A DNA stretch of 39,777 nucleotides, taken from IMG/VR virus record IMGVR_UViG_2537562191_000049. The stretch is one strand, 5' to 3'. The DNA is from a virus. Taxonomy: Duplodnaviria; Heunggongvirae; Uroviricota; Caudoviricetes. Positions 5,462-6,103 of the stretch are shown one piece after another (position 1 is the stretch's first letter; each line of letters opens with the position of its first letter). Both the position numbers and the translations under genes were made by a program. The notes beneath the pieces are model-generated. The model ran no database searches, was not told where the DNA came from, and saw only the letters and a list, made by a program, of their open reading frames with translations.

Positions 5462-6103
5462 ATGAATTTTGACGATCAATTCCCATCAAGAGTATCTCTG
5501 GCAAGACAGTCAAGGGGTATGACGCAGGCGCAGTTGTCAAAATTAGCTGGTGTTGTTCAACGTCAAATAGCTGCATACGAGGGTGGTGAGGCTAAACCAC
5601 GGCTTCGGGTATTGCAGGCATTAGCCAACGCATTAGGTACTACAGCTGAGTGGTTAGCTCTAGGTGAAGGTCAGGGTCCGGGAACAAAAAACGTCATGCC
5701 TGACGTTCTGGTAAAGCAAATACCAATCCTCAAACTAGATGAAGTTATGCATTACCTAAACACAGGTGAACATTCATCGTCTAGATTTCACCCGGCAATA
5801 TACAATGTTGGTGACTCTGCATTTGCATTGACTATTGAAGGTGAAGCTATGACTACAAGTTCAGGTATTAGCTTTCCCAGAGGATCGGTTGTCACGTTCA
5901 GCCCTCTAGTAAAAGCTAAAAGCAAAGATTATGTAATAGCATCATTGGATAAAGAGCAAATATTGAGCTTCAAACAGGTTTACATTGGTGAAATAGAGAC
6001 AAACCTAGTATCCCTAAACCCAATGTATCCTAATATTCTTGTTAGAAATGAAGATGTTAGTATTTTGGCAACCGCAGTTTACCTTGAAATCCCGTTGCTT
6101 TGA
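5462..6103 (+). CDS. CI/LexA-family repressor-like protein: HTH_XRE N-domain plus S24-like C-domain with the nucleophile Ser replaced by Ala
   Basis: 213 aa; N-terminal HTH (MTQAQLSKLAGVVQRQIAAYEGG); C-terminal domain aligns with lambda CI (TIEGEAMTT vs EVEGNSMTA; SFKQV vs TFKKL; LNPMYP vs LNPQYP). Codon at 5848-5850 is GCT (Ala) where the catalytic Ser is expected; the Lys position is retained. Confidence 0.8.
   Translation: MNFDDQFPSRVSLARQSRGMTQAQLSKLAGVVQRQIAAYEGGEAKPRLRVLQALANALGTTAEWLALGEGQGPGTKNVMPDVLVKQIPILKLDEVMHYLNTGEHSSSRFHPAIYNVGDSAFALTIEGEAMTTSSGISFPRGSVVTFSPLVKAKSKDYVIASLDKEQILSFKQVYIGEIETNLVSLNPMYPNILVRNEDVSILATAVYLEIPLL

Follow-up and report, generated by a model that had tools for sequence, protein, structure and literature searches.

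In phage P22 the antirepressor gene ant is held off by Mnt, an SOS-independent maintenance repressor encoded in the immI region (summarised in PMC2629481 and PMC8022706). This region comprises mnt, the promoters Pant and Pmnt, arc, sar and ant, and lies within the ant moron, which occupies the interval from gene 16 to gene 9; high variability of the region has been documented (PMC2629481). The DNA analysed here, IMG/VR virus record IMGVR_UViG_2537562191_000049 (the whole stretch of 39,777 nucleotides is hereafter called the window), is a P22-like (Lederbergvirus) prophage of E. coli. In the same slot, from a gp16-like gene to the tailspike gene, the repressor gene divergent from the antirepressor operon (5462-6103) encodes a protein related to lambda CI instead of Mnt. 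The locus raises the question of whether this CI-like protein performs the role of Mnt and, given its descent from SOS-cleavable repressors, whether it is open to inactivation by the SOS response. The reading that we favour, and consider probable, is that the protein is a maintenance repressor comparable to Mnt, resistant to cleavage and acting on an antirepressor operon of the immI type, with the S24 domain kept for oligomerisation.

Domains and catalytic residues of the CI-like protein

The positions in the gene on which the analysis depends are as follows.

5462-6103, plus strand: CI-like repressor gene; 213 amino acids, with a 434-like helix-turn-helix (HTH) at approximately residues 7-67, a linker, and an S24-like C-terminal domain (108-206) lacking the catalytic Ser
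5744-5749, plus strand: codons GTT ATG of Val95-Met96, aligned to the scissile Ala111-Gly112 of lambda CI; no Ala/Cys-Gly at this place
5846-5848, plus strand: codon GCT of Ala129, at the S24 nucleophile position, equivalent to lambda Ser149 (LexA Ser119)
5972-5974, plus strand: codon AAA of Lys171, the general-base position, which is kept; equivalent to lambda Lys192 (LexA Lys156)

Comparison of the 213-residue protein with Pfam matched residues 14-65 to HTH_3 (E 9.3e-13) and residues 108-206 to Peptidase_S24 (E 1.3e-12), both matches exceeding the curated cut-offs. In phmmer searches against the PDB, residues 8-69 aligned with the HTH of the 434 repressor, to which this domain is nearer than to that of lambda, and residues 108-206 aligned with the C-terminal domain of lambda CI through the segments EGNSMT/EGEAMT, TFKKL/SFKQV and LNPQYP/LNPMYP. 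The AlphaFold2 model, with a mean predicted local distance difference test score of 84.9, contained five helices at the N-terminus, then a disordered linker and a beta-domain. The top Foldseek match to the model was full-length lambda repressor (3bdn, E 2e-11), with LexA and UmuD' also matched, and comparison with the lambda C-terminal domain (1f39) gave a TM-score of 0.84 and a root-mean-square deviation of 2.1 Å over 98 columns. A lambda CI fold is supported by the modeling, and all of these approaches agree with the original prediction that the product resembles lambda CI through the cleavage domain. The profile search and structure prediction that it had proposed as checks confirmed the fold and the Ala at the nucleophile position.

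Lambda Ser149 is paired with Ala129 in the PDB alignment and in the family alignments. The GCT codon had been placed at 5848-5850 and is found two bases further left. Besides the Ser nucleophile, the CI-like protein is without the Ala/Cys-Gly cleavage site of the linker. The main prophage CI (31689-32405), correctly described as keeping GDSM, has retained all three features, reading IQAG, GDSM and FKKL. The two proteins had been termed paralogs, which is a loose term since they share just 32% identity, restricted to 95 residues of the C-terminal domain; the family of the CI-like protein is a separate one, with a 434-like HTH and an Arc/Ant cassette of its own.

The architecture of the protein is like that of lambda CI, LexA and UmuD (MEROPS S24) in the N-terminal DNA-binding domain, linker, S24 beta-domain and retained Lys, and unlike that of the self-cleaving S24 proteins in the Ala at the nucleophile position and the Val-Met at the scissile bond. 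It resembles in these respects the LexA variants S119A (PDB 1jhh) and G85D (PDB 1jhf), which were engineered and are non-cleavable, and is in effect a natural equivalent of them. Since there is neither a nucleophile nor an Ala-Gly bond, activated RecA should be unable to trigger self-cleavage. Resistance to RecA-stimulated self-cleavage can be soundly inferred from the sequence, and the case is stronger for the absence of the Ala-Gly bond as well.

The start at 5462, and with it the 213-residue form, was adopted because the N-terminal MNFDD is conserved family-wide. In the record of Escherichia phage JEP4 (MT740315; L001 6073-6642), an identical gene is annotated from an internal TTG at residue 25, which is 24 codons late, and the product is named 'repressor protein C2'. 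An exact 10-nt direct repeat, AATGAATTTT, is present at 5439-5448 and 5461-5470, 22 bp apart, with the second copy covering the start codon of the CI-like gene. Both copies match the pattern ATG-NN-TTTT found in many related loci. The repeat may be an autoregulatory site, or may have arisen by coincidence from the conserved codons for M-N-F-D.

Loss of the cleavage site in the family

Relatives were collected with a word-indexed search of 5.8 billion proteins, which returned 22, and with scans of GTDB genomes and IMG/VR, which added 82 loci. Among the 74 unique homologues the Ala-Gly was retained by one protein. The residue at the Ser position is Ala in the clade of the window, within EGEAM or GDAM, and GDSM is still present in an 81% identical relative (P0003/L008). 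Ala at this position was also found in L062 and L064, in a Providencia/Morganella clade (DPAM, with Lys replaced by Arg) and in another clade (DSAM, also with Lys replaced by Arg). Gly was found in L073 and L081, and several members keeping Ser have Arg, Met or Val instead of Lys.

A HMMER search run exhaustively over 1.84 billion cluster representatives yielded 39 family clusters at 50% identity, the family being set by the RQIAAYE-type recognition helix. The comparison set was 76 neighbouring HTH-S24 repressors taken out of the same hit list. The features were kept as follows.

Ser: family 27/39; neighbouring HTH-S24 repressors 67/76
Lys: family 25/39; neighbouring HTH-S24 repressors 64/76
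Ser and Lys together: family 22/39; neighbouring HTH-S24 repressors 58/76
Ala/Cys-Gly: family 1/39; neighbouring HTH-S24 repressors 34-36/76

By these counts the canonical cleavage site has been abandoned by the family as a whole and the dyad is eroding piecemeal, Ser and/or Lys having been lost several times independently. The Ser-to-Ala substitution of the window is a late symptom, one instance of this erosion. The substitution emphasised in the original prediction is present but is not the defining event, since the cut site is lost in almost the whole family; the homologue survey that had been proposed found Ala in several groups, while other homologues keep Ser. Rare members with Ala-Gly, Ser and Lys, namely P0016/L010 (L010 4988-5809) and P0045, occupy an arc-like/ant cassette of the same kind. 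Possibly SOS-cleavable, they may represent the ancestral state of the module.

These results bear on whether SOS proteolysis still inactivates the CI-like protein, either in trans through the prophage CI, LexA or UmuD, or at a non-canonical site via Lys171. UmuD is known to undergo intermolecular cleavage, as is LexA given an active C-terminal fragment in trans. Lys171 is retained, and most family members have Ser and Lys. Against such proteolysis, no Ala/Cys-Gly occurs in the aligned cleavage region of the CI-like protein or of 38 of the 39 family clusters, and the AlphaFold2 model shows a strand and then a helix where the cleavage loop aligns. A Gly at P1' is required in LexA and lambda CI, and LexA G85D is described as non-cleavable in the title of PDB entry 1jhf. 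Inactivation by this route is considered very improbable.

Loss of both the catalytic residue and the cleavage site could also mean that the gene is what remains of a second immunity repressor, without function and in decay. However, none of the 74 unique homologues has a broken open reading frame (ORF), the HTH hardly varies, and the gene is strictly linked to the cassette. In the Ala clade, 11 synonymous and 0 non-synonymous changes separate the C-terminal domains of the window and L035; in comparisons with L007 and L008 the synonymous sites are saturated and the non-synonymous divergence (dN) is just 0.18-0.26. The ratio of non-synonymous to synonymous divergence is far below 1, the Ala-bearing clade included. 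The C-terminal domain is under purifying selection and the gene is not a pseudogene, and the remnant explanation is disfavoured as barely credible.

The divergent spacer and the antirepressor cassette

As originally described, the CI-like gene is divergent from the Arc-like/antirepressor operon across a spacer of 99 bp. The features of the spacer are listed below.

5363-5461, no strand: divergent regulatory spacer, 99 bp
5412-5440, minus strand: Pant-like sigma-70 promoter TTGACT-17-AATAAT, with -35 at 5440-5435 and -10 at 5417-5412; 10/12 consensus matches
5432-5448, no strand: most conserved spacer block, ATGAGTCAATGAATTTT, overlapping the -35 and reaching past it; candidate operator with the right-hand ATGAGT box
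5385-5399, no strand: left box, ACTCATAATCTCACT, with two YTCA repeats 8 bp apart, at approximately +7 to +21 of the leftward transcript; candidate second operator
5425-5437, no strand: 13-bp palindrome ACTCAG-T-ATGAGT across the -35/spacer junction, present only in the closest relatives of the window

The best minus-strand promoter was found at the identical position in 36/36 non-redundant main-clade loci (scores 9.5-12), and TTGACT-17-AATAAT probably drives the arc-like/ant operon; in the rightward direction there was no promoter of comparable quality. A LexA box (CTGT-N8-ACAG), allowing up to 1 mismatch, was absent from 5363-5461. Column conservation of the spacer, determined with 19 representatives less than 80% identical, was highest for ATGAGTCAATGA-N-TTTT over the -35 and second highest for an inverted ACTCAT box at approximately +16 of the leftward transcript. 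TGAGT occurred 21 times compared with 1.7 ± 1.4 in shuffles, and both ACTCA and TGAGT were enriched about tenfold. The left box is inverted relative to the right box, and YTCA boxes cluster at -50/-42/-40 from the -35 anchor. The RQIAAYE recognition helix is almost invariant across the family, which would fit a conserved operator, a full dyad not being definable. Comparison by eye of the beta-strand classes of the Arc-like proteins with lineage-specific repeats around the -10 revealed no link.

Upstream of the CI-like gene and in frame with it, ATG AGT CAA TGA (5432-5443) forms a mini-ORF of 3 codons overlapping the -35 block. The stop of the mini-ORF is missing in P0002, P0003, P0007 and the like, where gene callers add 10-13 residues (MSQ...). 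The spacing between the block and the real start differs by 25-27 nt among loci, which indicates that the block is conserved at the level of DNA and not of protein.

The promoter bears on a different role for the CI-like protein, that of an activator or signal-responsive switch which turns on the small gene and the antirepressors on a non-SOS cue, with the dead S24 domain serving to sense a signal or bind a partner. The TF-smORF induction modules described in PMC10432266 have such an arrangement, a transcription factor counter-oriented to a small ORF, and are likewise tied to inactivation of the main repressor; purifying selection on the C-terminal domain although catalysis is lost would suit a sensor. 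In those modules a weak promoter of the small ORF is activated by the factor, and the antirepressor is the small protein itself (PMC10432266). Here the leftward promoter is near-consensus in every locus and should need no activation; moreover the small ORF encodes an Arc-like DNA-binding protein, no obvious repressor-binding peptide, with canonical Ant genes next to it. An activating role is regarded as rather improbable.

The genes and elements flanking the spacer are given here in leftward order.

6370-8235: gp16-like gene
5189-5362, minus strand: Arc-like ribbon-helix-helix protein, 57 amino acids; first gene of the leftward operon; phrog_10182
5081-5190, plus strand: candidate sar-like antisense RNA; promoter TGGAAG-17-TACAAT at 5081-5109, start near 5116-5117, two hairpins, terminator hairpin at 5147-5181 with a T-run
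4489-5115, minus strand: antirepressor with Bro-N and P22_AR_C (Pfam); PHROG anti-repressor Ant, E 1.8e-53
3672-4397, minus strand: second antirepressor-family gene; phrog_1726 anti-repressor, E 7e-99; 'KilA' in JEP4
3451-3672, minus strand: ORF of 73 amino acids, last gene of the leftward operon; phrog_4977
3423-3444, no strand: terminator hairpin ending the leftward ant operon, shared with the convergent mnt
3179-3436, plus strand: genuine Mnt homologue, E 3e-16 to P22 Mnt (PDB 1mnt) over residues 3-75; divergent from the tailspike gene
1109-3046, minus strand: tailspike gene

Approximately 56 of 58 unique loci contained a divergent ORF of 56-57 amino acids about 99 bp upstream of the CI-like gene, followed by 1-2 genes encoding 200-350 amino acids. 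The order of the cassette is the CI-like gene, about 99 bp of spacer, the Arc-like protein of 57 amino acids, the candidate sar-like antisense RNA, and one or two antirepressors. In P22-like phages the cassette is located between gp16 and the tailspike, as in the window and in L006 from Leclercia (gp16 and tailspike Pfam families). Elsewhere it was found in a lambda-like/siphovirus tail gene cluster (L008), beside an integrase (L003) and in Providencia phage PSTNGR2lys (L002). The cassette behaves as a mobile module within the Enterobacterales, across unrelated phage backbones. The stretch from 5189 to 6352 is 99.2% identical over its full length to JEP4, also a Lederbergvirus. The region 3000-6400 matches several E. 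coli chromosomes at approximately 100% identity, two O111:H8 strains among them; E. coli UTAK-8 (NZ_CP168991) is one of the strains matching at 100%. Of 5,426 complete E. coli genomes, 25 contain at least 80% of the region.

Compared with the PDB, the profile of the Arc-like family matched AmrZ (1e-4), Arc (4e-3) and Mnt (0.05). The Pfam Arc family was matched by 12/18 members, with the single protein of the window under the cut-off (16.0 versus 20.4 bits). The antisense RNA candidate, with an expected length of roughly 70 nt (about 5117-5190), is complementary to the ribosome-binding site and start codon of ant, and its T-run abuts the stop codon of the Arc-like gene. The hairpins of this region gave z = -5.0 with RNAfold. 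The stems were out of register in a MAFFT alignment, for which RNAalifold accordingly returned a weak consensus (-1.6 kcal/mol), and conservation was judged instead by per-sequence folding and pair tallies. In approximately 50/53 loci a hairpin with a T-run keeps the same distance from the arc stop; the stem sequences vary, and several stem positions carry multiple Watson-Crick pair types. A promoter was found 34-45 nt upstream of the terminator hairpin in 27/29 loci. By analogy, the candidate mirrors P22 sar in position and logic. The Rfam search of the antisense RNA gave no match to sar; a SymR-like match was disregarded, its 21.8 bits (E 0.63) being far below the gathering score of 61.

The Mnt homologue is convergent with the antirepressor operon and located 2 kb from the CI-like gene, with the terminator hairpin between. 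The CI-like gene had been said to sit where Mnt normally controls Pant, which is correct as to position, although a genuine Mnt homologue persists nearby. It is conceivable that this Mnt is the real maintenance repressor of ant and that the CI-like protein controls itself and a downstream ORF for a 62-residue membrane protein, or sites elsewhere, since the homologue is well conserved in the same ant-moron region and a gene at the same position is found in L006 and JEP4. However, the invariant divergent partner of the arc-like/ant operon is the CI-like gene, even in loci with no mnt nearby (L003, L008 and L002). Mnt has its own 17-bp palindrome upstream at 3093-3109, of which there is no copy in 5363-5461, and phage L and ST64T already provide examples of an orphan mnt beside gene 9 (PMC8022706, PMC2629481). 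Because the mnt of the window sits beside the tailspike gene, past the terminator, the functional neighbour of the ant promoter is the CI-like gene. Control of ant by this Mnt in place of the CI-like protein is considered quite improbable; it would appear that Mnt has been supplemented or displaced, not simply replaced.

The palindrome at 3093-3109 is an inverted repeat, GGTAT-N7-ATACC, in the upstream region of mnt (3047-3178), and could be the Mnt operator. The hydrophobic ORF of 62 amino acids (6164-6352, plus strand) lies just 3' of the CI-like gene, probably has two transmembrane segments and is preceded by a strong Shine-Dalgarno sequence, AAGGAGG. It matches phrog_21338, is unannotated in JEP4, is not conserved in the other loci, and sits in the slot where P22 has the sieA/hkc genes.

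Proposed control of the antirepressors

According to the favoured reading, the CI-like protein would be a DNA-binding dimer or oligomer built as lambda CI is, whose S24 domain is no longer a peptidase and is probably used only for dimerisation and cooperativity. In the lysogen it most likely occupies the 99-bp spacer and silences TTGACT-17-AATAAT, and hence the Arc-like protein and the two antirepressors, a role that would correspond to what Mnt does in P22 immI. A non-cleavable repressor would leave the antirepressor operon uncoupled from SOS, whereas the prophage CI at 31689-32405 would stay SOS-cleavable. During infection, before the repressor builds up, the promoter may fire briefly, after which the Arc-like protein and the sar-like antisense RNA would damp expression as in P22. 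Since the primary CI is itself cleavable, the antirepressors probably serve in superinfection or in trans on other prophages. We infer binding at the spacer, repression of the spacer promoter and non-cleavage in vivo from the features described above.

Several observations weigh against this reading. A position weight matrix scan revealed no rightward promoter at a consistent position across the loci, and the CI-like gene's own promoter was not found. Searches for inverted and direct repeats, anchored conservation profiles and motif searches in the window gave no family-wide palindrome, so that the operator is not assignable, and the repeat and conservation analyses left sites for the CI-like and the Arc-like proteins in the spacer inseparable. 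The true Mnt at 3179-3436 might contribute to control of ant. Furthermore, Lys171 is kept, Ser and Lys are intact in 22 of the 39 clusters, and Ser and Ala alternate between close relatives, as seen in P0003 with GDSM; these features could reflect some remaining catalytic activity, in trans or at a non-canonical site.

It has also been considered that the S24 domain has been repurposed as a receiver, to which a non-SOS signal, the antirepressor of another phage or the cassette's own Ant binds, releasing the promoter. The outcome would be RecA-independent induction or prophage cross-talk via the two antirepressors, in which the Arc-like protein and the antisense RNA would restrain a positive feedback. 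The relatives with Ala-Gly, Ser and Lys (P0016/L010 and P0045) would then be the ancestral, SOS-coupled version. A receiver function of this kind is thought unlikely.

The favoured reading, a non-cleavable maintenance repressor, places the locus close to P22 immI, which it resembles in the strong promoter, the Arc-type ribbon-helix-helix gene in first position, the Bro-N/P22_AR_C antirepressor, the candidate antisense RNA over the ant ribosome-binding site and the divergent repressor abutting the promoter. It differs in that the divergent repressor is a 213-residue HTH and S24-like protein compared with the 82-residue ribbon-helix-helix tetramer Mnt of P22, and in the presence of two antirepressor genes, the occurrence of the cassette also outside P22-like phages, the lack of an Rfam sar match and the separate mnt by the tailspike. 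As in Gifsy-1, Gifsy-2, Gifsy-3 and Fels-1 (FsoA), antirepressor genes outside the main immunity region would be held off by a dedicated repressor (PMC3121763). As in Fels-1, the phage's own CI is cleavable and the antirepressor may act mainly in trans on other prophages (PMC3121763). The antirepressors of the Gifsy phages are LexA-controlled and SOS-induced (PMC3121763), unlike the present locus, which has no LexA box and a dedicated repressor that looks SOS-blind. SOS-blind repressors paired with antirepressors are already known (PMC3121763). The literature provided a description of the ant moron and the analogous systems cited above, and no account of this repressor family or cassette was found.

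Antirepressor circuits determine the timing of prophage awakening and the capacity of one prophage to awaken another. In the locus described here the logic of P22 immI appears to have been rebuilt on another scaffold, descended from SOS-cleavable repressors, with the cut site shed almost family-wide and the dyad lost repeatedly. The results refine known biology and introduce no new principle. They offer a concrete candidate for the control of the ant moron that was left unexplained in 2008 (PMC2629481), and the family is a natural series for asking what role a non-cutting S24 domain plays. The combination of repressor, Arc-like protein, antisense RNA and antirepressor appears as a portable cassette on podovirus and siphovirus backbones in the Enterobacterales, including O111:H8 lineages of E. 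coli.

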